From: Nitrogeniibacter aestuarii
GTDB lineage: Bacteria; Pseudomonadota; Gammaproteobacteria; Burkholderiales; Rhodocyclaceae
DNA length: 64,000 nt
Direction of reading: 5' to 3'
Assembly: GCF_017309585.1 (NCBI RefSeq)
Contig: NZ_CP071321.1
Span: forward strand, 156,335 to 220,334
Shown piece by piece: positions 9,390 through 18,548 of this stretch. The stretch's first letter is position 1, and every line of letters begins with the position of its first letter. The notes beneath the pieces were generated by a model. It was not told where the DNA came from, did not search any database, and worked only from the letters and a program-made list of their open reading frames with translations. A program made the translations under genes and the position numbers.

Positions 9390-9602
9390 GGGTGTCTCCC
9401 AATCTCTGGTCTGTGGCCGCTATTGGGTGCGACCTGAAACGTACAGCATGCCACCGTTTTCATGACGGCTCCACCCTGTGCGAAGCAGGGGGATCTGGCG
9501 CCTCTTGCGAGATCATTGAAATGGCATGATTTGCGGCTGTCTGTTTGCCAATGGCATAGTCTCGCGTACCATACAACCCCTCGTGTTTGTCCTGACCTTG
9601 CC

Positions 9603-12560
9603 ATGTTTTCCGAGTTTTCCACCGCCACGCGGCTGTACGATCTGAGCTGGCGCGACAGCGGCCCTGAGTTGCTGGTCGAAGCCTGGTGGGGCCATGAGGC
9701 CCTGTCGCAGGGGTTCGAGCTGTGCATCGACGCGCTGTCGACCGACGCACACCTGGCGCTCAAGGACTTTCTGGGCAAGGCGGTGAGCCTGCGCTGCGCC
9801 CTGCCCGACGGCAGCGCCAGCACCCGCAGCGGTCTCGTGCGCGCCGCCTTCAAGCTGGGCAGCGACGGCGGCTTCACCCGCCACCGGCTGGTGGTGGTGC
9901 CCTGGAGCTGGCTGCTCACGCAAACGCGCAACAACCGCGTCTTCCAGGACAAGAGCGTGGTCCAGATCGTCGAACAGGTATTCGCCACCCACCAGCAGTT
10001 CGCTGCCTGGCAGTGGAGCGATGAAGTGGCAGGCTTTCTGGAGCGCGTGCGTCCCCGCAGCTACTGCGTGCAATACGGCGAAACCGACTACGCCTTCATT
10101 TCCCGCCTGCTGGCCGAAGAGGGCATCGGCTGGTGCATGGAAGAAGACGACAGCGCCCCGGCCGGCCACCGCATGCGCCTGTTCGCCGACAGCGGCGCCT
10201 TCCCCGAAGACGTCCAGTCCCAGGTGGGCGGCATCCGCTTTCACCGCGCCGACTCGCAGGAAGAGAGCGACGCCATCGTCGCGCTCGGCGCCCACCGCAA
10301 GCTCGGCCTGTCGGTGGGCACCACGCTCAGCTACGACTACAAGCACAAGAAGATCGTCGCCACCAGCCTGCCCAGCGTGCAGCGCCCCGGCGGCCCCAAC
10401 GCCCCGGTGCTCGAAGACTTCGACGACGCCGGGCTCTACGCCTACGCCGACCGGGCCGAAGCCGAGCACTACGCCGGGCTCATGCTCGAAGCGCGCGAAG
10501 CACGCTTCAAGACCTTCATCGGCCGCGGCACCGTGCGCAGCTTCCGCCCCGGGCTGGCCTTCAGCCTGAGCGAATCGACGCTCGACGCCCTGGTCGACTC
10601 ACCCGACGACGCCACCGACGAGAACGCCACCCGCTTCGGCCTGCGCTCGGTGCTGCATGTGGGCATCAACAACCTCACCGGCGAAGCCATGGCCAGCATC
10701 GCCAAGCGCCTGTCCGGCGCACTGCACACCGACCCCGGCGCCTGGGAAGAGGCCGAGACACCCCGCGCCGACATCGCCCACGCCCCCGCCCAACTGCCCG
10801 ATCGCATCCTCGAACTGGCCTGCGAGCGCGGCTACGGCAACCAGTTCGACACCCAACGCCTCAGCGTGCCCTGGCGCCCCGTACTGGCCGACGGCACCGG
10901 CGAGCGCCTCAACCCGCGCCCCACCGCCCCCGGCCCCATGACCGCCATCGTCGTCGGCCCGCAGGGCGAAGCCAGCCCCAATGGTGCCGACGAGCTCTAC
11001 TGCGACAAATACGGACGCATCAAGGTGCGCTTCCACTGGCAGCAAGGCCTCGAAGCGGACGACAACCGCAGCTGCTGGCTGCGCGTGGCCAGCCGCCAGG
11101 CCGGCGAAGGCATGGGCTGGCAGTTTCTCCCGCGTATCGGGCAGGAAGTGCTCGTGGGCTTCCTGGGGCAGGACATCGACCGCCCCATCGTCATCGGCGC
11201 GCTCTACAACGGTCGGGGCGAGGGTGGCGTCGCCCCCACCCCGGGCGGCGAGACCGGCAGCGAATCGGACACCAGCGTCTTCACCCAGGCCACCGACCAC
11301 AGCCCCTCCGCCCAGGGCAACCTCAGCGCCGGCAACAGCCCCGCCTGGCACGGCGGCGCCTCCACGGGCCACGGCCACGCCGCTGCCCTGACCGGCTTCA
11401 AGACCAAGGAGTTTGGTGCCAACGGCAGCTACGCCGGCTACAACCAGCTCGTCTTCGACGACACTGACAGCCAGCAGCGCGTGCAGCTCAAGAGCACCGA
11501 ATCGACCAGCGAACTCAACCTCGGCCACCTCATCCACCAGGCCGACAACTACCGCGGCTCCTTCCGTGGCACCGGCGTCGAACTCAGAACCGATGCCTGG
11601 GGCGCCCTGCGCGCCGGCAACGGCTTGCTCATGAGCACCTGGGCCAAAGGCAGTGACCGAGAACCGGCCGGCGACAACAGCGCCGGCATGGCCCTGCTCA
11701 AGCAAGCCACCACCCTAGGCGAAACCCTCTCGGGCGCCGCCAAGACCCACCAGACCGTGCAACTGGCCAGCGCCCTGGGCTCCCAGGCCGCCAACCAGAG
11801 CGCCATCGACCCCGACGCCGCCCCCCTCAAGGCCCTGCACACCGTCGCCAGTGGCATGGTCGCCCGGGACAGCACCGGCGCCGCGAACAGCGACGCGGGC
11901 GCCAAGAACACCGCCGTGGGCGATGGCAAAGTCCCGCATCTCACCGATGCCGCCATCGTCCAGGCCGCCAAAGCCGGCCTGGCCATGGTTGCCGGGCAAC
12001 ACCTGCAATGGACCGTGGGCGAGACCGCCACCCTCATGAGCGGCCAGGACACCAACTTCGCCATCGCCGGCAAGACCCGTATCCACACCGGCCAGGCCAT
12101 CGGCCTGCTCGCCGGCGCCATTCAGCCCGGCGAGCAGAACACCGGCATCAAGCTCATTGCCGCACAAGGCGACATCGATGCCCAGGCCCAGAGCGACGAG
12201 ATGAAGTTCCAGAGCAAGAAGGACCTCAAACTCGTCTCGGCCAGCGCCAACATCGACTTTGCGGCGGCCAAGAAGATCGTCATGTCAGTCGGGGGCGGGG
12301 CGAGCATCACCATCGACGGGGGCATCACCGTGCAGTGCCCGGGGACGATTACGGTGCATGCGAGCAAGAAGAGTTTTAGTGGGCCGACGAGCGAGAGTTA
12401 CGCGTTGCCCGTCATGCCCACTGAGAACAGCGACTGGGTCAAGGTTGACGCGGTATACGACGACGCCTGGAACACCCGTTGGCCCTTGGACGACATGAAG
12501 CTCGATCTTGGCGGACAGCCGCTGGCCACCCACTTCAACCTCCCCAAGACCAAGGAGTAA
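9603..12560 (+). CDS. vgrG: Type VI secretion system spike protein VgrG
   Basis: 985 aa. gp27/gp5-like N-terminal modules (FELCIDALSTDAHLALKDFLGKAV, YCVQYGETDYAFISRLLAEEGIGW). G-rich beta-helical repeat region. ATG at 9603 is inside the longer tracked ORF and has an upstream purine-rich region. Confidence 0.9.
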   Translation: MFSEFSTATRLYDLSWRDSGPELLVEAWWGHEALSQGFELCIDALSTDAHLALKDFLGKAVSLRCALPDGSASTRSGLVRAAFKLGSDGGFTRHRLVVVPWSWLLTQTRNNRVFQDKSVVQIVEQVFATHQQFAAWQWSDEVAGFLERVRPRSYCVQYGETDYAFISRLLAEEGIGWCMEEDDSAPAGHRMRLFADSGAFPEDVQSQVGGIRFHRADSQEESDAIVALGAHRKLGLSVGTTLSYDYKHKKIVATSLPSVQRPGGPNAPVLEDFDDAGLYAYADRAEAEHYAGLMLEAREARFKTFIGRGTVRSFRPGLAFSLSESTLDALVDSPDDATDENATRFGLRSVLHVGINNLTGEAMASIAKRLSGALHTDPGAWEEAETPRADIAHAPAQLPDRILELACERGYGNQFDTQRLSVPWRPVLADGTGERLNPRPTAPGPMTAIVVGPQGEASPNGADELYCDKYGRIKVRFHWQQGLEADDNRSCWLRVASRQAGEGMGWQFLPRIGQEVLVGFLGQDIDRPIVIGALYNGRGEGGVAPTPGGETGSESDTSVFTQATDHSPSAQGNLSAGNSPAWHGGASTGHGHAAALTGFKTKEFGANGSYAGYNQLVFDDTDSQQRVQLKSTESTSELNLGHLIHQADNYRGSFRGTGVELRTDAWGALRAGNGLLMSTWAKGSDREPAGDNSAGMALLKQATTLGETLSGAAKTHQTVQLASALGSQAANQSAIDPDAAPLKALHTVASGMVARDSTGAANSDAGAKNTAVGDGKVPHLTDAAIVQAAKAGLAMVAGQHLQWTVGETATLMSGQDTNFAIAGKTRIHTGQAIGLLAGAIQPGEQNTGIKLIAAQGDIDAQAQSDEMKFQSKKDLKLVSASANIDFAAAKKIVMSVGGGASITIDGGITVQCPGTITVHASKKSFSGPTSESYALPVMPTENSDWVKVDAVYDDAWNTRWPLDDMKLDLGGQPLATHFNLPKTKE

Positions 12561-12566
12561 GGCCAG

Positions 12567-13769
12567 ATGGCTTCGGAAGACGAGGGCGCGAAGAAGTTGC
12601 TCACCCCACAGGGCGGCTCCGTCGCCGTGATGGCAAATCCGAGAAATGTCAGTGAGAAGGAGATTCACGACGACAGATTGCTGATCATTCAACGCCTTGA
12701 CGGTTGCTATGGCAATCTCGTTGAGCACATGGCACCAATGCAGGCGGCCTGGGATGCCAACCCCATGGTCGCGTTGGGCGAAGCGGCCATCGACGGTGCC
12801 AGCGCTGGTGTTGGTGACTGGGCCGACGACTTTGCCGACATGTTCGACAAGAAGACGTGGGTCGCGTTGGGGGACAAGTTGGAGCATGCGGCAGGCGCCG
12901 TCTACGACACCACCCGCGAGTATGCGGCGGATGTCTACCAGCGCATCGACGCGCTCTTCGAGAACGCCGACGATACCCTCGCCAACTGGGCATGGTGGCA
13001 AAGCCAGATCGAATCGGCCGAGCAGGCCGTCGTTGACGATCTCCAGCGAAAGTACGAAGCGATGAGGGAAACGGTTGATGACATCGAGGAGGTCATTGCC
13101 ATCGCCCAGCGGGTGTGGGCCTATCGGGACGACATTCTCAACCTCCCTAAGCTGATTGCAGAAGGTGACGCCAAAGCGGTGCAAGCCTTTGTCGACAACA
13201 CACTACCGAAGATCGACAAGGAACTGGCCGATGGCATTCGCAACGACCCGAATTTCTACGTCGTGCTGGAGATCATTCAGGACAATGACAGCGCGCTGGC
13301 CTATCTGAGTTACGTCAGCCTGGCCATCGAAGCCGTGCCGCCCAACTTCTACGCCTACCACGCCGGCAAGGGCGGCGCCTACCTGATGATTGAAGTGGTG
13401 CTGCTGATCGTCACCGCACTGCTATCGGCCGGCACCGTCGCCGCAGCACGCATCGCCGCACTCGGCGCGCGAATTGCCGCCAGCAGCGCCAAGGTCGCCG
13501 GCGTTGCCCGCAAGGTCGAAGCGGCGCAACGCGCCTTCGCCGCCTTTGTCCGCATGCTCGACGACTTCTCGGCCGCCGCCAACCAGCTCCACGCCCTGGG
13601 CGCCAAGCTCAACGTGGCGCGCCAGCGCGGCCTGCGTGTTGCGGGCAGCACAAAAACCACCATCACCGCCCGCCGCGCCGCCATCAAGCGCGACCGCCGC
13701 TGCCGCATCTGCGGCAGCAGCAAACACAGCACACCGCACGGGCGGCTGGGCACGGTCGAGTACGAATAA
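12567..13769 (+). CDS. VgrG-linked hypothetical protein; probable carrier/N-terminal part of a T6SS effector
   Basis: Starts 6 nt after the vgrG stop with RBS CAAGGAG. Hydrophobic/Ala-rich segment near residues 265-330. In the same reading frame as the downstream AHH gene, separated only by TAA at 13767-13769. Confidence 0.5.
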   Translation: MASEDEGAKKLLTPQGGSVAVMANPRNVSEKEIHDDRLLIIQRLDGCYGNLVEHMAPMQAAWDANPMVALGEAAIDGASAGVGDWADDFADMFDKKTWVALGDKLEHAAGAVYDTTREYAADVYQRIDALFENADDTLANWAWWQSQIESAEQAVVDDLQRKYEAMRETVDDIEEVIAIAQRVWAYRDDILNLPKLIAEGDAKAVQAFVDNTLPKIDKELADGIRNDPNFYVVLEIIQDNDSALAYLSYVSLAIEAVPPNFYAYHAGKGGAYLMIEVVLLIVTALLSAGTVAAARIAALGARIAASSAKVAGVARKVEAAQRAFAAFVRMLDDFSAAANQLHALGAKLNVARQRGLRVAGSTKTTITARRAAIKRDRRCRICGSSKHSTPHGRLGTVEYE

Positions 13770-13784
13770 GGAGAAGAAGGCACA

Positions 13785-14462
13785 ATGCTCGGCAACGTAC
13801 TGAAGGACGCCAAGTACCTCAAACGCATCAAGGACGCCACGGACCTGCTCTCCGACCCCGGCCACCCGCGCCACCACGGAATCAAGATGCAGGCGCATCA
13901 TGTGATTTCGGCGGAGGGGGTGAAGAAGTCTGGTCTTGGGAACGATCTCGTTCGATTTGGCTATGACATCAACCTGTTGGACAATCTGGTCTTCATTCCC
14001 TCGACGCTACAGGGCGCGTGCCACTTGGGCGTGCAGCCGCACCGGGGAGATCACAGGGCGCCGGTCGAGGGGGATGAGTTTGATGATGATCGGAAGCGAC
14101 CGGATGACTACCATAGAACGATCGCCAAGCGAGTCAATGAGTTGAAGCGCCTGCTTACCGACAATTGCCCGGCCGAGGATCCGGACCGGCGGCGGACGAT
14201 TCACCAGAAGATGGATGAGATCAGCAAGAAAATTGCGAAACTCATCCGAATCGTCCCGAGTAAAGCTCCTCTGACGAGAGTTGCGAAGCACTTCGGCCCG
14301 ACATCAAAGATCGGCTGCGGCGGGGTCGATTCGATTCCTCGCCACGAAGACCATCCCTGCCCGGTGGAGCGACATCACCACGGTCAGCAAGGCCCCGGCC
14401 AGAAGGACGAGCAAATCACATACCGGAAAGATAAGCCGTATCAGTTGAAGGTGGGACGATGA
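13785..14462 (+). CDS. AHH-family HNH/EndoVII-fold nuclease toxin domain protein
   Basis: A-H-H motif in MQAHHVISAEGVKKSG. Followed by DINLLDNLVFIPST and a His-rich segment (GACHLGVQPHRGDH), as expected for AHH nucleases of polymorphic toxin systems. Stop overlaps the first immunity-like gene (ATGA). Confidence 0.72.
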   Translation: MLGNVLKDAKYLKRIKDATDLLSDPGHPRHHGIKMQAHHVISAEGVKKSGLGNDLVRFGYDINLLDNLVFIPSTLQGACHLGVQPHRGDHRAPVEGDEFDDDRKRPDDYHRTIAKRVNELKRLLTDNCPAEDPDRRRTIHQKMDEISKKIAKLIRIVPSKAPLTRVAKHFGPTSKIGCGGVDSIPRHEDHPCPVERHHHGQQGPGQKDEQITYRKDKPYQLKVGR

Positions 14463-15085
14463 GCGCAGGCAGGTTTGACAATGACTACTATTTTGTCCAC
14501 GAAGTCCCTCACGATGAGCGTCTTCCATACCTGACACCCGATGAAGACACGTCGCGCAAACCCTATACGTCCAAGCGACTCCCGATGCATACCAAACCGT
14601 TGATTTTCCACAACGGCTCCTTGGATTATCAAAAGGCGAACCGCATCACTCCGTACGATCCGCCCCCGGAAATCCTCTTCAGTGGCTCCGACGTTGTCGT
14701 CAAGGACAAGCTGCGCGACAAACTCCTGCCGCTGGAAATTCCCAACCTCGCCATCCAGCCGGCGATCTACATCGACCACAAAAACAACTGGCACGAGGAC
14801 TACTGGTATCTGACATTCACCGAGTTGTTCGATTGCTGGGATCGAGAGAGGTCTTACTACGACCCCGATCCGGTCGATTTCGACGATGTGAAGCTCTACG
14901 AGGTGTACACCTACTCGCTCGACGAAAAGGTGTTGGAAGAAACGCCGCTCGAATCTCGGCGCCTGTTCAAGATGGGTAGCACCACGGAAGGTCCGGTTGT
15001 CGTCCACGTCTCCATTGCAAGCTGGTTCGGACTTAGCGGCGCAGTGCTTGTGCCCATCGCCGAGTATGGGGTGTCATTTCCCTGA
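14459..15085 (+). CDS. putative immunity protein, tandem paralog 1 of 3 (207 aa)
   Basis: Immediately downstream of, and ATGA-coupled to, the AHH toxin gene. Shares the conserved core LPLEIPNLAIQPAIYIDHKNNWHEDYWYLTFTELFDCWDRER with paralogs 2 and 3. No secretion signal. Confidence 0.6.
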   Translation: MSAGRFDNDYYFVHEVPHDERLPYLTPDEDTSRKPYTSKRLPMHTKPLIFHNGSLDYQKANRITPYDPPPEILFSGSDVVVKDKLRDKLLPLEIPNLAIQPAIYIDHKNNWHEDYWYLTFTELFDCWDRERSYYDPDPVDFDDVKLYEVYTYSLDEKVLEETPLESRRLFKMGSTTEGPVVVHVSIASWFGLSGAVLVPIAEYGVSFP

Positions 15086-15112: not shown

Positions 15113-15736
15113 ATGAGCACAGGAAAATTCGATAGCGACTACTACTTTGTTAGAAAAGCGCAAGACGAGCGTTTGCCGTCGTTGACACCCGACGAAGATA
15201 CATCTCGCAAGCCTTATACGTCGGAGCGGCTTCCGATGCATACCAAGCCATTGATCTTCTTCAACGGTGCGTCGGATTTTCAGAAGAGCAATCACATACG
15301 GCCAAGTGACCCGGCTCCAGACATCCTTTTCAGCGGTTCGGATGTCCTCGTCAAAGACGAAGTACGCGATAAACTTCTGCCGCTGGAAATCCCCAACCTC
15401 GCCATCCAGCCTGCCATCTACATCGACCACAAGAACAACTGGCATGAGGACTACTGGTATCTGACGTTCACCGAGTTGTTCGATTGCTGGGATCGTGAGC
15501 GATCGTCATATCGGCCCAAGCCCATCGATTTCGATGGAGTGAAGATCTACAACGTACGTCAATATTCCCTGAACGATGACCTGCTTGACGAAACCCCACT
15601 CGAGTCCAGACGGCTGTTCAAGATGGGTGGCACGCTGGATGGCTTCGTCGTCGTCCATGTCTCCATTGCGAGCTGGTTCGGACTCAGCGGCGCAGTGCTT
15701 GTGCCCATCGCCGAGTACGGGGTGTCATTTCCTTGA
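15113..15736 (+). CDS. putative immunity protein, tandem paralog 2 of 3 (207 aa)
   Basis: Divergent N-terminal ~60 aa and residues ~135-170. Conserved core and C-terminus. Preceded by a 27-nt spacer whose last 17 nt mimic the 3' end of the AHH gene. Confidence 0.6.
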   Translation: MSTGKFDSDYYFVRKAQDERLPSLTPDEDTSRKPYTSERLPMHTKPLIFFNGASDFQKSNHIRPSDPAPDILFSGSDVLVKDEVRDKLLPLEIPNLAIQPAIYIDHKNNWHEDYWYLTFTELFDCWDRERSSYRPKPIDFDGVKIYNVRQYSLNDDLLDETPLESRRLFKMGGTLDGFVVVHVSIASWFGLSGAVLVPIAEYGVSFP

Positions 15737-15763: not shown

Positions 15764-16387
15764 ATGAGCACAGGAAAATTCGACGGCGAATACTATTTCG
15801 TGCTGAAGGACAGGGCAGAGGGAATGCCAGAAATGACGCCGGATGAGGACACCGCAAGGAAGGGCTATCGGTTCACTCGGCTTCCGCTGCACACGAAGCC
15901 TCTGATATTTCACAACGGCTCATTGGAGCATCAACGAGCAAATCGAATTAGGCCCATCGACCCGCCTCCCGAAATTCTATTCGATGGCTCCGACGTCCTC
16001 GTCAAAGACGAAGTACGCGACAAACTCCTGCCGCTTGAAATCCCAAACCTCGCCATCCAGCCTGCCATCTACATCGACCACAAGAACAACTGGCATGAGG
16101 ACTACTGGTATCTGACATTCACCGAGTTGTTCGATTGCTGGGATCGAGAGAGGTCTTACTACGACCCCGATCCGGTCGATTTCGACGATGTGAAGCTCTA
16201 CGAGGTGTACACCTACTCGCTCGACGAAAAGGAGTTGGAAGAAACCCCGCTCGAATCTCGGCGCCTGTTCAAGATGGGTAGCACCACGGAAGGTCCGGTT
16301 GTCGTCCACGTCTCCATCGCGAGCTGGTTCGGGCGCAGCGGCGCAGTGCTGGTGCCCATCGTCGAGTACGGGGTGTCATTTCCCTAA
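15764..16387 (+). CDS. putative immunity protein, tandem paralog 3 of 3 (207 aa)
   Basis: C-terminal 150 aa nearly identical to paralog 1. N-terminus distinct. Same junction sequence as paralog 2. Confidence 0.6.
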   Translation: MSTGKFDGEYYFVLKDRAEGMPEMTPDEDTARKGYRFTRLPLHTKPLIFHNGSLEHQRANRIRPIDPPPEILFDGSDVLVKDEVRDKLLPLEIPNLAIQPAIYIDHKNNWHEDYWYLTFTELFDCWDRERSYYDPDPVDFDDVKLYEVYTYSLDEKELEETPLESRRLFKMGSTTEGPVVVHVSIASWFGRSGAVLVPIVEYGVSFP

Positions 16388-17284
16388 GACCGTCTTGGCC
16401 TCCGATTTGGTGCTTCCCTTGGATACAAATTTTCAAGGCTGGATGGAAATTGCTTGGGCCCGAAGACATCCCTGCTCGAAGCCTGCGACGAGTACGTCAC
16501 CTTGCTCAACCTGCGCAACTGGGAAAAGCTTTGCGAGCGCTACGTGACCGAACAGATCTACGTGCACTCAAAGCTGATGGTTGTGGATGACCGGATCGCG
16601 CTCATTGGCAGTGCCAACATCGATGACCGCAGCTTGCTGGGCGAACGCGATTCGGAACTGGCGGTACTGGTGATTGACGACACCCATGAGAAGGCCGACA
16701 TCGGCCTGGGCCGGCAGACGCCGGTGCGCAAGTTTGCGCGGGAACTGCGCATGGACATCTGGAAGAAGCTGTTCGGAATCACCGGCAATGTGCGCCCGGC
16801 CACGCATCTGCAGGCGGCCATCGAACAGCCGGTCAAGCCAGCCAGTTGGAAGGCGATTCAGAAGCAGGCGCGGGAGAATGCCGAGGCGTATGAGAAGGCG
16901 TTTGAGTTTGTTCCGAGGAATTGGGTAGATGAGGTCGAAGGCAGGGTTCCTGCCAAGATCTTGCCCACTTGGGATTCAAGCTCCGACGTGCCTGAGGGAA
17001 TAGCGGCCAATTGGGGAAAGAAAGGCTATCTGAAATCGCCATTACCGTTCCAGTCGGAATTCTGGGGTAAGCCACGTTACAACCCGACCGCCGTGGCCGG
17101 CCTCAACGACATCAAAGGATTCATTACCGCCCTGCCCGTTCACTGGACCGAAGGCGAGAATATCAAGTTTGTGTTCCCGACATCGCTAGTGGTGCAGAAC
17201 GATCGTACACCGGCCGGTACGCCGCTAAAGACCGCTTGGGACGCAACGCAAGAAGACCAAGCTATAACGGACGAACACGTATGA
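16388..17284 (+). pseudogene. Orphan C-terminal fragment of a phospholipase D-family (Tle5-like) T6SS effector; no start codon
   Basis: Frame opens immediately after the TAA of immunity paralog 3, with no ATG/GTG and no RBS. Contains one PLD HKD motif (HSKLMVVDDRIALIGSANIDDRS = HxKx4Dx6GSxN). The first HKD repeat is missing. ATGA overlap with the downstream lipoprotein gene. Confidence 0.65.
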
Positions 17285-18375
17285 GCTACCGGAATATTGC
17301 GATGGCCCTCGGGCTTTGTCTGCCGCTGGGCGCTTGCGCCGACAAGCCTGCAAACCAGACATGGCCAATCGAATGCGTAGGGCGCATGCAGATTTCGTTG
17401 CCGGGCGAGGCCGATCAGGCAGCCTTACCAAGTTCGGCATTCATTGAACAGTTTGCCGCAACTCAGACAAAGCGTATCCGGCACACGTACTCAGATGGGT
17501 CGTACGCTTCGCGGGTCAATTTATATTTTCGCGCCGGCGTGGAAGTCAGTCAAAAACTCAGCAATCAGGAAGTCGCGAATCTGAAGGGGGCCATCAAGGA
17601 GCGAAATATCCGGGTACAGCAGCATGCGAAAGACCAAGGCGGACAAGTGACATATTTGAATACTGGTCCGCTTGAAGGCTCAGTGCTGGTGCGAAGCGAT
17701 GTGTTTTACATCTCTTCCACATTGATATTTGGCCAACATGCGCTGACATGGAAACTTCGCACGGACGAAAAACGCTTTGACGAAGTGAAGGCTTTGGCTA
17801 ACGGTTTGAGCACGAACCTTCGTCCCCGCCCCCTTTTCGACACCCCCCACGAACCTGGCGTCTGCCTGCCCTATGCCTTCATCCGCGACGACGGCACCAC
17901 CCCGCACAGCATCGCCATGAGCTACCGGCTCAATGATCACCCGGACATCGTCATCAATCTGGAGAGCAGTAGCGCAAGCCCCACACCGAAAAAGGGCGAC
18001 CATGCCCGCCCGGATACCGTCACAGACGAGACGCGCACGAGTGATTTCTGGAACCAGCAGATGACATGGCTGCACACGTTCAAAACCCACTGGAAGCGCC
18101 CATTCTCCATGCGCAGTGTGGACATCGCCGGTCGTAAAGGCACGGCATCGTTCGTGGAAGTGGTGCGCGAAAAAGGCGGTCCCACCGACCACATCTATCT
18201 CGTGGTCGCGCGCGGCAATCCGGACGCCCCCGAGGCTGAGCCGGACATCCGCTTGTTCGTCGAGCAGACGCAGGAGAACGCCACCAAGCGCGGCATTACG
18301 CCGCTGACGCAGGACGAGGTGCAAGCGCTGGCCGAGCAGATCACTGCGAGCGTGTCGATCAGGCCCACTCTCTGA
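17281..18375 (+). CDS. lipoprotein, putative periplasmic immunity protein (Tli-like) for the PLD effector
   Basis: Signal peptide plus lipobox (MALGLCLPLGAC). Translationally coupled to the PLD fragment. Matches the usual tle-tli arrangement. Confidence 0.55.
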   Translation: MSYRNIAMALGLCLPLGACADKPANQTWPIECVGRMQISLPGEADQAALPSSAFIEQFAATQTKRIRHTYSDGSYASRVNLYFRAGVEVSQKLSNQEVANLKGAIKERNIRVQQHAKDQGGQVTYLNTGPLEGSVLVRSDVFYISSTLIFGQHALTWKLRTDEKRFDEVKALANGLSTNLRPRPLFDTPHEPGVCLPYAFIRDDGTTPHSIAMSYRLNDHPDIVINLESSSASPTPKKGDHARPDTVTDETRTSDFWNQQMTWLHTFKTHWKRPFSMRSVDIAGRKGTASFVEVVREKGGPTDHIYLVVARGNPDAPEAEPDIRLFVEQTQENATKRGITPLTQDEVQALAEQITASVSIRPTL

Positions 18376-18519
18376 TCGCTTACCGCAAGTCTTCTGGACC
18401 ATGCAAACCCTCGTGGGTGGCCGTAAGAGCCTGCTCAACGGCATTCGCAGGGGGTTGAAGGCACTGCTGGTTGCAGTAGGCTGGCAAACCGTTGCGCCAA
18501 AAGATCGATGAAGAAGTTA

Positions 18520-18548
18520 ATCAGGGCGCCGCGGCGCCCTGATTTATT
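18520..18548 (-). terminator. Palindromic GC hairpin terminator (bidirectional), downstream of phasin
   Basis: TCAGGGCGCCGCGGCGCCCTGA followed by TTTATTG. Lies between the convergent island end and the phasin stop. Confidence 0.5.

Follow-up and report, generated by a model that had tools for sequence, protein, structure and literature searches.

In Vibrio cholerae, homology-facilitated illegitimate recombination inserts a new effector/immunity module into type VI secretion system (T6SS) loci, and the 3' end of the old effector gene is retained along with its immunity gene (Kirchberger et al. 2017, PMC5361080). In agrobacteria, recombination within vgrG carries the downstream genes along (PMC8546570). 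Here, we consider a 64,000-nucleotide stretch of the Nitrogeniibacter aestuarii genome (the window; all coordinates refer to it) that contains an isolated vgrG island, from 9462 to ~18545, in which a 5'-truncated gene for a phospholipase D (PLD), the pld stub, directly precedes an intact lipoprotein immunity gene, tli5. The closest described counterpart of this pair is the PldA/Tli5a (PA3488)/VgrG4b system of the Pseudomonas aeruginosa H2-T6SS: the fragment resembles residues 829-1081 of PldA (Tle5a, PA3487), the lipoprotein resembles PA3488, and the family layout is vgrG-pld-tli5 (PMC6684961). We posit that the island was very probably once a vgrG-pld-tli5 locus into which a ~4-kb block from another vgrG module recombined, leaving the pld stub and tli5 behind. 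The loss of an effector to displacement, with its immunity gene left as an orphan, has been described before at other T6SS loci, and the island adds another, well-mapped example; in the literature, of which our coverage is incomplete, we found no earlier description of truncated Tle5/PldA orphans for this effector family and bacterial order.

The PLD-like frame is open from 16388 to a TGA at 17282-17284, with no frameshift or stop across 299 codons. Its translation aligns with residues 829-1081 of P. aeruginosa PldA/Tle5a (PDB 7v53, 1099 aa) at E=1.2e-48, a region that includes the HKD2 residue His855 and the C-terminal domain, and it also matches, more weakly, the second catalytic half of human PLD1 and PLD2. 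In Pfam, PLDc (E=6e-10) and PLDc_2 are both over the cut-off, and a hidden Markov model (HMM) profile of 34 full-length relatives is matched at E~1e-118 over positions 546-796 of 811 (nt 16475-17242). A protein search returned 545 matches to full-length relatives of ~815 aa, and the closest of the best 120 of these (P0258) is 67.7% identical to the stub, in which all 45 alignment-invariant residues are present. That is, what remains is the end of the HKD2 subdomain and the C-terminal domain, together the C-terminal ~31% of the effector.

For comparison, a genome scan (one genome per species) returned 80 loci of relatives, labeled within the series L001-L084. The full-length proteins in these loci are mostly ~800-1130 aa, and those of the closest clade (n=34) measure ~800-860 aa, carry HKD motifs at about residues 170 and 600, and are followed, usually directly, by a Tli5 homologue. 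Wherever the upstream sequence was examined, vgrG precedes pld, giving the layout vgrG-pld-tli5 with no adaptor gene. The stub has a single HKD motif (frame residue 60), where full-length relatives have two (~170 and ~600). The first-pass annotation of this DNA had read that motif as a perfect HxKx4Dx6GSxN, and the translation confirms it at nt 16565-16618.

Alignment to full-length Tle5/PldA effectors places the break 3' of HKD1 and just ahead of the HKD2 block, with ~545 codons lost. In PldA, the HKD2 subdomain comprises aa 565-935, and PA3488 clamps HKD2 and the C-terminal domain (PMC9550806). With the stub beginning at the position that corresponds to PldA residue 829, ~70% of the HKD2 subdomain is gone, and the conserved HKD2 blocks IYIENQFF, FHVYITLPVHPEG, and WTMQTLxFG are absent. 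Because HKD1 and ~70% of the HKD2 subdomain are missing, we infer that the stub cannot form the two-lobed active site or act as a phospholipase. Nor does it lie directly downstream of a vgrG with a loading extension, since a 4-kb AHH nuclease cassette intervenes. By homology, the stub is part of what was a gene for a T6SS phospholipase D effector of the Tle5a/PldA family, and it is not predicted to be a functional member of that family. No other pld sequence was found in the window by tblastn, apart from a 27-codon relic (18383-18463) to which we return below; the idea that the PLD N terminus is retained within the 400-aa protein encoded upstream or elsewhere in the window was rejected when searches found none.

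The partner of the stub is complete. The lipoprotein matches Pfam Tli4_C (PF18426; E=3.5e-14, 53.7 bits against a cut-off of 25) and PA3488 (PDB 5xmg, also a chain in the PldA-PA3488 complex 7wdk; E=6.8e-11). Its N terminus, MSYRNIAMALGLCLPLGAC, is a lipoprotein signal ending in ...LPLGAC, with the lipobox LGAC, and the protein is full length, with signal peptide, lipobox, ECVGR motif, and Tli4_C domain. Residues ~6-361 of 364 align with the Tli5 proteins whose genes adjoin intact pld, near full length in the closest clade, at 22-44% identity to the products of genes that follow intact pld. PA3488/Tli4_C homology, the lipobox, and a position immediately 3' of pld thus all place the gene in the Tli5 family. 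We predict that Tli5 is still made and that it guards the cell against PLD effectors of relatives that retain the old toxin. The first-pass annotation had read the pair as an orphan toxin-CT/immunity module, and the PldA alignment, the PA3488/Tli5 match, and the position 3' of a different complete module all bear this out.

The VgrG at the head of the island is chimeric, with a pld-type core joined to an AHH-module-type tail. Compared with the VgrGs encoded ahead of intact pld in L003, L005, and L002, the core shows 58-73% identity, versus 30-41% for the VgrGs of AHH modules (L082 and L084). In the C-terminal alignment, the protein tracks pld-type VgrGs up to ...SGPTSESYALP and, from VMPTENSDWVKVDAVYDDAWNTRWPLDD onward, the AHH-module tails of L082 and L084 over its last ~45 residues, and GC content at this junction steps from 0.68 to ~0.59. 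It is also without the ~170-aa C-terminal extension that is present in the pld-linked VgrGs of L003, L005, L002, L007, L004, L014, and L017. In P. aeruginosa, VgrG4b and VgrG5 determine the loading of PldA and PldB through their C-terminal domains, which can be swapped to redirect an effector (PMC6684961). The VgrG of the window looks like a natural spike-tail swap of this kind, in which the cargo-specifying end and the cargo genes would have arrived together.

Between the spike gene and the stub lies a complete module of a different type, in which a gene for an AHH-family nuclease toxin is followed by three tandem paralogs. Homologues of these paralogs stand directly after AHH genes in L082, L083, and L084, as single copies in L082 and L084; the paralogs are mutually 77-85% identical, and their Imm11 matches are below threshold (18.5-19.1 bits against a cut-off of 22.1). 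The order vgrG, ~400-aa gene, AHH gene, immunity gene is also found in the metagenome contig L082 and in Jeongeupia wiesaeckerbachi (L084), in both of which the place between the vgrG and AHH genes is taken by an open reading frame (ORF) of ~396-401 aa that has no Pfam family and is comparable to the 400-aa protein of the window in size and position. For the protein of the window, a role as a so far undescribed adaptor or co-effector of the AHH toxin is possible. From this arrangement, we predict that the AHH nuclease is the current effector of the island and that the three paralogs are the immunity genes of its cassette, of which only one is likely cognate to the toxin. The paralogs themselves are mosaic: the first and third share a middle/C-terminal block, the second and third share the N terminus MSTGKFD, and a central stretch of ~45 residues is identical across all three, a pattern that suggests recombination or gene conversion among the copies.

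The right-hand end of the cassette is bracketed by three observations. Similarity among the 651-nt paralog repeats goes no further than the stop codon of paralog 3, and the 27-nt spacer AGCGAGAGCGGTG(T/C)TGAAGGTCGGACG that follows paralogs 1 and 2 does not follow paralog 3. The onset of PLD homology is at nt 16475 (frame residue 30) in almost all of the 80 genomic loci; likewise, in alignments with full-length proteins (the best 120 of 545), the onset is at residue 30 in 72 of 119 and at residue 31 in 32 more. Finally, the linker of relatives, K.L.DK..PY.AVL.D..NT.Y.DIP.EAC, is fairly conserved, and the window has GYKFSRLDGNCLGPKTSLLEAC in its place. Because the spacer is lost at the paralog 3 stop, PLD homology begins at 16475, and the linker is missing, the right junction falls between 16388 and 16475, with ~16466-16477 as its most likely place. 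The 87 nt from 16388 to 16474 may have come in as the 3' flank of the cassette; a reading of this segment as continued inter-paralog spacer, which would extend the cassette, was rejected, as there is no similarity. A search for direct and inverted repeats revealed no convincing microhomology connecting the two junctions.

These results refine what the first-pass annotation had said of this end of the cassette. It had placed a breakpoint at about 16388 at single-nucleotide resolution: a recombination junction is indeed supported, but its position is a range (16388-16475) and the claimed resolution does not hold. The frame does open right after the TAA of paralog 3, at 16388, as that annotation had observed, and the chance of this is ~0.09 (a shared frame, 1/3, times ~0.27 for 29 codons free of stops at this base composition), which makes the coincidence unremarkable. 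Paralog 3 and the stub share a frame at 16385-16390, and read-through of the TAA would give an immunity-stub fusion. Three elements went beyond that annotation altogether: the left junction, which falls within vgrG; a further pld relic downstream of tli5; and the identity of the three paralogs as immunity genes of an AHH cassette.

In total, the locus has a 5'-truncated effector gene and an intact immunity gene 3' of a different complete module, with junctions that are bracketed rather than resolved to the nucleotide (Table 1). In the model that we propose, the incoming ~4-kb block would have comprised a 3' vgrG end, the ~400-aa partner gene, the AHH nuclease toxin gene, and its immunity gene(s). 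The left crossover would have occurred in the conserved end of vgrG, at ~12402-12425, and the right end would have been a non-homologous join in the linker just ahead of the HKD2 block of pld, at 16388-16475. Such an event would have deleted the effector-binding C-terminal extension of VgrG and approximately the first 545 pld codons, including HKD motif 1, and would have left the ~265 final pld codons and the whole cognate immunity gene.

Table 1. Features of the vgrG island and their coordinates in the window
Feature	Position	Strand	Basis or details
Chimeric vgrG	9462-12560	+	Pfam Phage_GPD, Phage_base_V, T6SS_Vgr, DUF2345; core ~residues 1-984, tail ~45 residues
Left recombination junction in vgrG (YALP / VMPTE)	12402-12425	+	C-terminal alignment switch, GC step
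400-aa protein of no known family, part of the incoming cassette	12567-13769	+	No Pfam, NCBIfam, or PDB sequence match
Predicted AHH-family (HNH/EndoVII superfamily) nuclease toxin	13785-14462	+	Pfam AHH E=3e-11, 43.7 bits (cut-off 22.3)
Three tandem Imm11-like predicted immunity paralogs	14459-15085, 15113-15736, 15764-16387	+	Direct repeats D1-D3, period 651-654 nt
87-nt segment holding the right junction	16388-16474	+	In frame with paralog 3 and the pld fragment; GC 0.52
Candidate TTG start, 276-aa product	16454-16456	+	ORF list; same as NCBI-annotated P0001; Shine-Dalgarno-like duplex -6.1 kcal/mol
5'-truncated pld	16475-17284	+	HMM positions 546-796 of 811; PldA residues 829-1081 of 1099
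HKD motif 2	16565-16618	+	HSKLMVVDDRIALIGSAN; HxKx4Dx6GSxN, perfect; frame residues 60-77 (translation, regular expression)
tli5, intact PA3488/Tli5-family lipoprotein immunity gene	17281-18375	+	Pfam Tli4_C, PDB 5xmg/7wdk, lipobox
Second pld relic, 27 codons (QVFWTMQTLVGGRKSLLNGIRRGLKA)	18383-18463	+	HMM positions 492-518; hmmsearch domain E=2.5e-11
Likely terminator closing the island	18519-18544	+	GC-rich palindromic hairpin, then UUUAUU; fold energy -24.6 kcal/mol, z=-3.8 versus shuffles

Several points weigh against the displacement model and should temper it. Neither the genome scan nor the protein matches, in which the fragment reaches 63-68% at best, yielded a close relative with an intact ancestral locus, and the direction of events is drawn from protein similarity for this reason. 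Because the best full-length match is only 67.7% identical, neither junction can be fixed at the nucleotide level. No intact pld elsewhere in N. aestuarii appeared among the named matches in the best 120 of 545, most of which are unnamed. A consensus promoter scan detected no plus-strand site within the island, with overall counts not above those of shuffles. Lastly, the retention of all 45 invariant residues could reflect selection of some kind on the stub, not a recent truncation.

The island carries a further trace of turnover. A 27-codon pld relic, which begins eight nucleotides past the stop codon of tli5, shares the reading frame of the main fragment and covers a region that is missing from it. 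By tblastn, it is 62-77% identical to residues ~505-531 of full-length PLDs in 9 of 10 proteins, with most queries at 69-77% and E~3e-7. Some 55 nt of unrelated sequence then separate it from the hairpin at 18519-18544. This second relic is probably a vestige of a pld copy that was displaced earlier. Its profile match stops at HMM position 518, and the main fragment's frame opens ~29 codons before position 546; an origin of the two from one contiguous copy, by one event or a circular permutation, was rejected as unsupported because both limits match the edges of conserved blocks and 16388-16474 shows no linker conservation. On this reading, the island would have been through at least two or three rounds of turnover within 9 kb.

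How might the stub and tli5 be translated? A candidate TTG start at 16454 opens a 276-aa coding sequence (CDS), which is the one annotated by NCBI (P0001) under the name "phospholipase D-like domain-containing protein." The 17 nt upstream of this TTG pair with the anti-Shine-Dalgarno (anti-SD) sequence at -6.1 kcal/mol, which ranks the site within the top 16% of positions drawn at random from the window and makes it comparable to the starts of paralogs 2 and 3 (-5.5 and -5.3 kcal/mol). In-frame GTG codons also occur at 16544 and 16562, both encoding conserved Val residues just ahead of the HKD motif. The earlier statements that the frame has no ATG or GTG and no ribosome-binding site therefore need correction: the two GTGs and the TTG are in frame, and the denial of a ribosome-binding site was overstated, given the SD-like match at 16454 and the NCBI CDS that begins there. 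At -3.2 kcal/mol, close to the median for random positions, the SD of tli5 itself is weak, and tli5 may therefore rely on stub-translating ribosomes that initiate at TTG 16454; it is plausible that translation of the stub in this way helps that of tli5.

The pld stop TGA overlaps the tli5 ATG as ATGA at 17281-17284, as the first-pass annotation had described for the junction with the lipobox protein. The overlap stands, but its reading as a hallmark of an orphan module does not, as the exact 4-nt pld/tli5 stop/start overlap occurs in 23 of 41 related loci. The overlap is an ancestral trait inherited with the pld/tli5 family and not one specific to orphans.

Similar remnants recur among the relatives. 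In L003, L020, L029, and L064, modules made of a truncated pld and a tli5 gene are found 3' of complete pld-tli5 pairs or 3' of one another; the tli5 copies within such loci are 70-89% identical, and the overlaps are kept. Short pld relics without tli5 are found in L004, L008, L016, L033, and L077. All six pld pieces attached to tli5 are intact to the 3' end, and unattached pieces are short (the relic in the window, L004, and L016). Orphan onsets fall at HMM positions 544-558 in the window, L003, L004, and L035 and at 514-522 in L020 and L029. The DNA of L002 and L005 shows a different kind of exchange: it is 99-100% identical until ~330 nt (~110 codons) before the pld stop, 40-69% identical over the last ~110 pld and first ~160 tli5 codons, and then 94-99% identical (L002 4000-4860). 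This exchanged segment overlaps with the region where PldA is described as contacting its immunity protein PA3488 (PMC9550806), which suggests that the contact surfaces may have been exchanged as a unit.

Two other kinds of rearranged pld were seen. In Herbaspirillum huttiense (L035, 9686-11833), one frame runs from a VgrG-like N terminus into a truncated pld (profile positions 544-756) and across the tli5 region, an apparent deletion fusion with its pld break placed as in the window. Full-length pld is split into two ORFs by a frameshift or stop in a metagenome (L001 9025-11479), in Caballeronia catudaia (L032 828-3155), and in a beta-proteobacterial metagenome-assembled genome (L020 5950-8299); these split genes are either pseudogenes or assembly errors. 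Among the listed homologues of the fragment (n=120, P0002-P0120 included), all are <=520 aa; one HKD motif is present in 102 and two in one other, and 17 show no match to the pattern. The possibility of a distinct family of short single-HKD PLDs was rejected, as the examples checked are fragments or split calls of ~815-aa genes: P0026 is the L020 orphan, P0048 is the second half of the L032 gene, and P0037 is the frameshifted L001 gene, all truncated or split beside tli5. For the 491-aa Herbaspirillum protein P0018, no genomic context was on record. Many deposited short "PLD-like" proteins, that is, single-HKD entries of 250-370 aa, are probably orphan stubs or split calls.

Could the ORF from TTG 16454 nonetheless encode a working single-HKD enzyme of 276 aa, which forms a homodimer like Nuc-type PLD-superfamily proteins and has the lipoprotein as its immunity protein or partner? 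NCBI annotates this CDS, the TTG has a moderate SD-like match, the HKD2 motif and the 45 invariant residues are intact, and the frame has no internal stops. Against these features, just ~26 homologous residues stand ahead of the HKD histidine, ~70% of the HKD2 subdomain is missing (PldA aa 565-935, PMC9550806; the fragment begins at 829), and the intact family takes its second catalytic histidine from HKD1 of the same chain. The context-checked short database matches, moreover, are truncated or split genes beside tli5. We regard such an enzyme as highly improbable.

What, then, of the stub and tli5 after the displacement? It has to be considered that the pair is a silent reserve cassette like Rhs and contact-dependent inhibition (CDI) orphans, in which homologous recombination over the conserved HKD2-coding block would graft the end and the immunity gene onto a full-length pld and so switch specificity. 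The L002/L005 mosaic segment, which overlaps the PldA-PA3488 contact region (PMC9550806), and the similar starting points of orphans across several genomes are consistent with this idea; the clustering of those starting points, however, partly reflects where conservation permits homology to be detected, and no full-length recipient pld is present in the island or the window, nor was one identified in the genome among the named matches of the best 120 of 545. We judge a reserve role unlikely. Alternatively, both genes might be neutral debris, now functionless and decaying, given that the upstream effector is gone, that the relic at 18383-18463 shows decay within the island, and that the promoter scan found no site inside it. 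Decay of that sort sits poorly with a tli5 gene that is full length with all its features, with a stub frame uninterrupted over 299 codons, and with the 6 of 6 tli5-attached pld pieces that are intact to the 3' end while unattached ones are short. Retained orphan immunity genes are also common in T6SS loci (PMC5361080; PMC10539506), and such genes may protect against non-self effectors (PMC10539506). That both genes are mere debris strikes us as quite improbable.

The setting of the island is simple. All of its annotated elements are on the plus strand, and the two genes that flank it, for an aminotransferase and a phasin, are on the minus strand; the phasin gene, which comes next after the island, is convergent on it. 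No other T6SS genes were seen among the neighboring genes, and an Rfam scan of the island matched no RNA family. The hairpin at 18519-18544, which lies between the island and the phasin gene and was missed by a consensus terminator scan, is likely a bidirectional terminator. We infer that the island is a single operon ending at this hairpin.

Returning to the described systems, the likeness to P. aeruginosa PldA has clear limits. The window keeps the last ~31% of the effector, with HKD1 absent; its closest full-length relatives belong to a betaproteobacterial clade of ~815 aa and not to the ~1100-aa Pseudomonas form; and its VgrG is without the C-terminal extension that loads PldA in P. aeruginosa (PMC6684961). 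With the V. cholerae displacement system, the locus shares a newly inserted module, the 3' end of the old effector, the old immunity gene downstream, and one homologous and one non-homologous junction. The two systems differ in that the organism here belongs to the Rhodocyclales, a PLD is displaced by an AHH nuclease, and the homologous crossover lies inside vgrG and gives a chimeric spike. With agrobacteria, it shares a VgrG core joined to a different C-terminal end with linked downstream genes, and clusters of immunity homologues occur there too; the crossover here is at the very end of the DUF2345 region, however, not inside the COG3501 domain, and there is no recognized Tap adaptor family. 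The orphans of Rhs and CDI systems are similar in being 5'-truncated toxin ends with a conserved stretch and the cognate immunity gene next to them, in arrays 3' of the active gene. Unlike those toxins, the PLD toxin is a globular two-lobed enzyme with no detachable C-terminal domain; because it is not a carrier with a detachable toxin domain, the retained pld piece is not a self-contained toxin.

The island is thus a compact natural effector swap with both junction regions mapped, and its spike is a natural VgrG tail swap of the kind engineered in P. aeruginosa for redirecting PldA and PldB. For annotation, it would be preferable to record the stub as a gene remnant and not, as in the deposited genome, as a "phospholipase D-like domain-containing protein." For the biology of the strain, the prediction is that it should resist PLD attack by its relatives while attacking with a nuclease. 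In more general terms, it is possible, although we hold the idea as rather doubtful, that the Tle5a/PldA phospholipases, globular two-lobed enzymes though they are, evolve like polymorphic toxins, such that the C-terminal end of the toxin and the N-terminal half of Tli5, which form the contact surfaces, are swapped by recombination as a short cassette and truncated ends are kept as a translated leader that drives tli5 through stop/start coupling or as reserve cassettes, with the stub being a functional element that is maintained. The mosaic of toxin C terminus and Tli5 N terminus in relatives suggests a route by which immunity specificity may diversify in this effector family.

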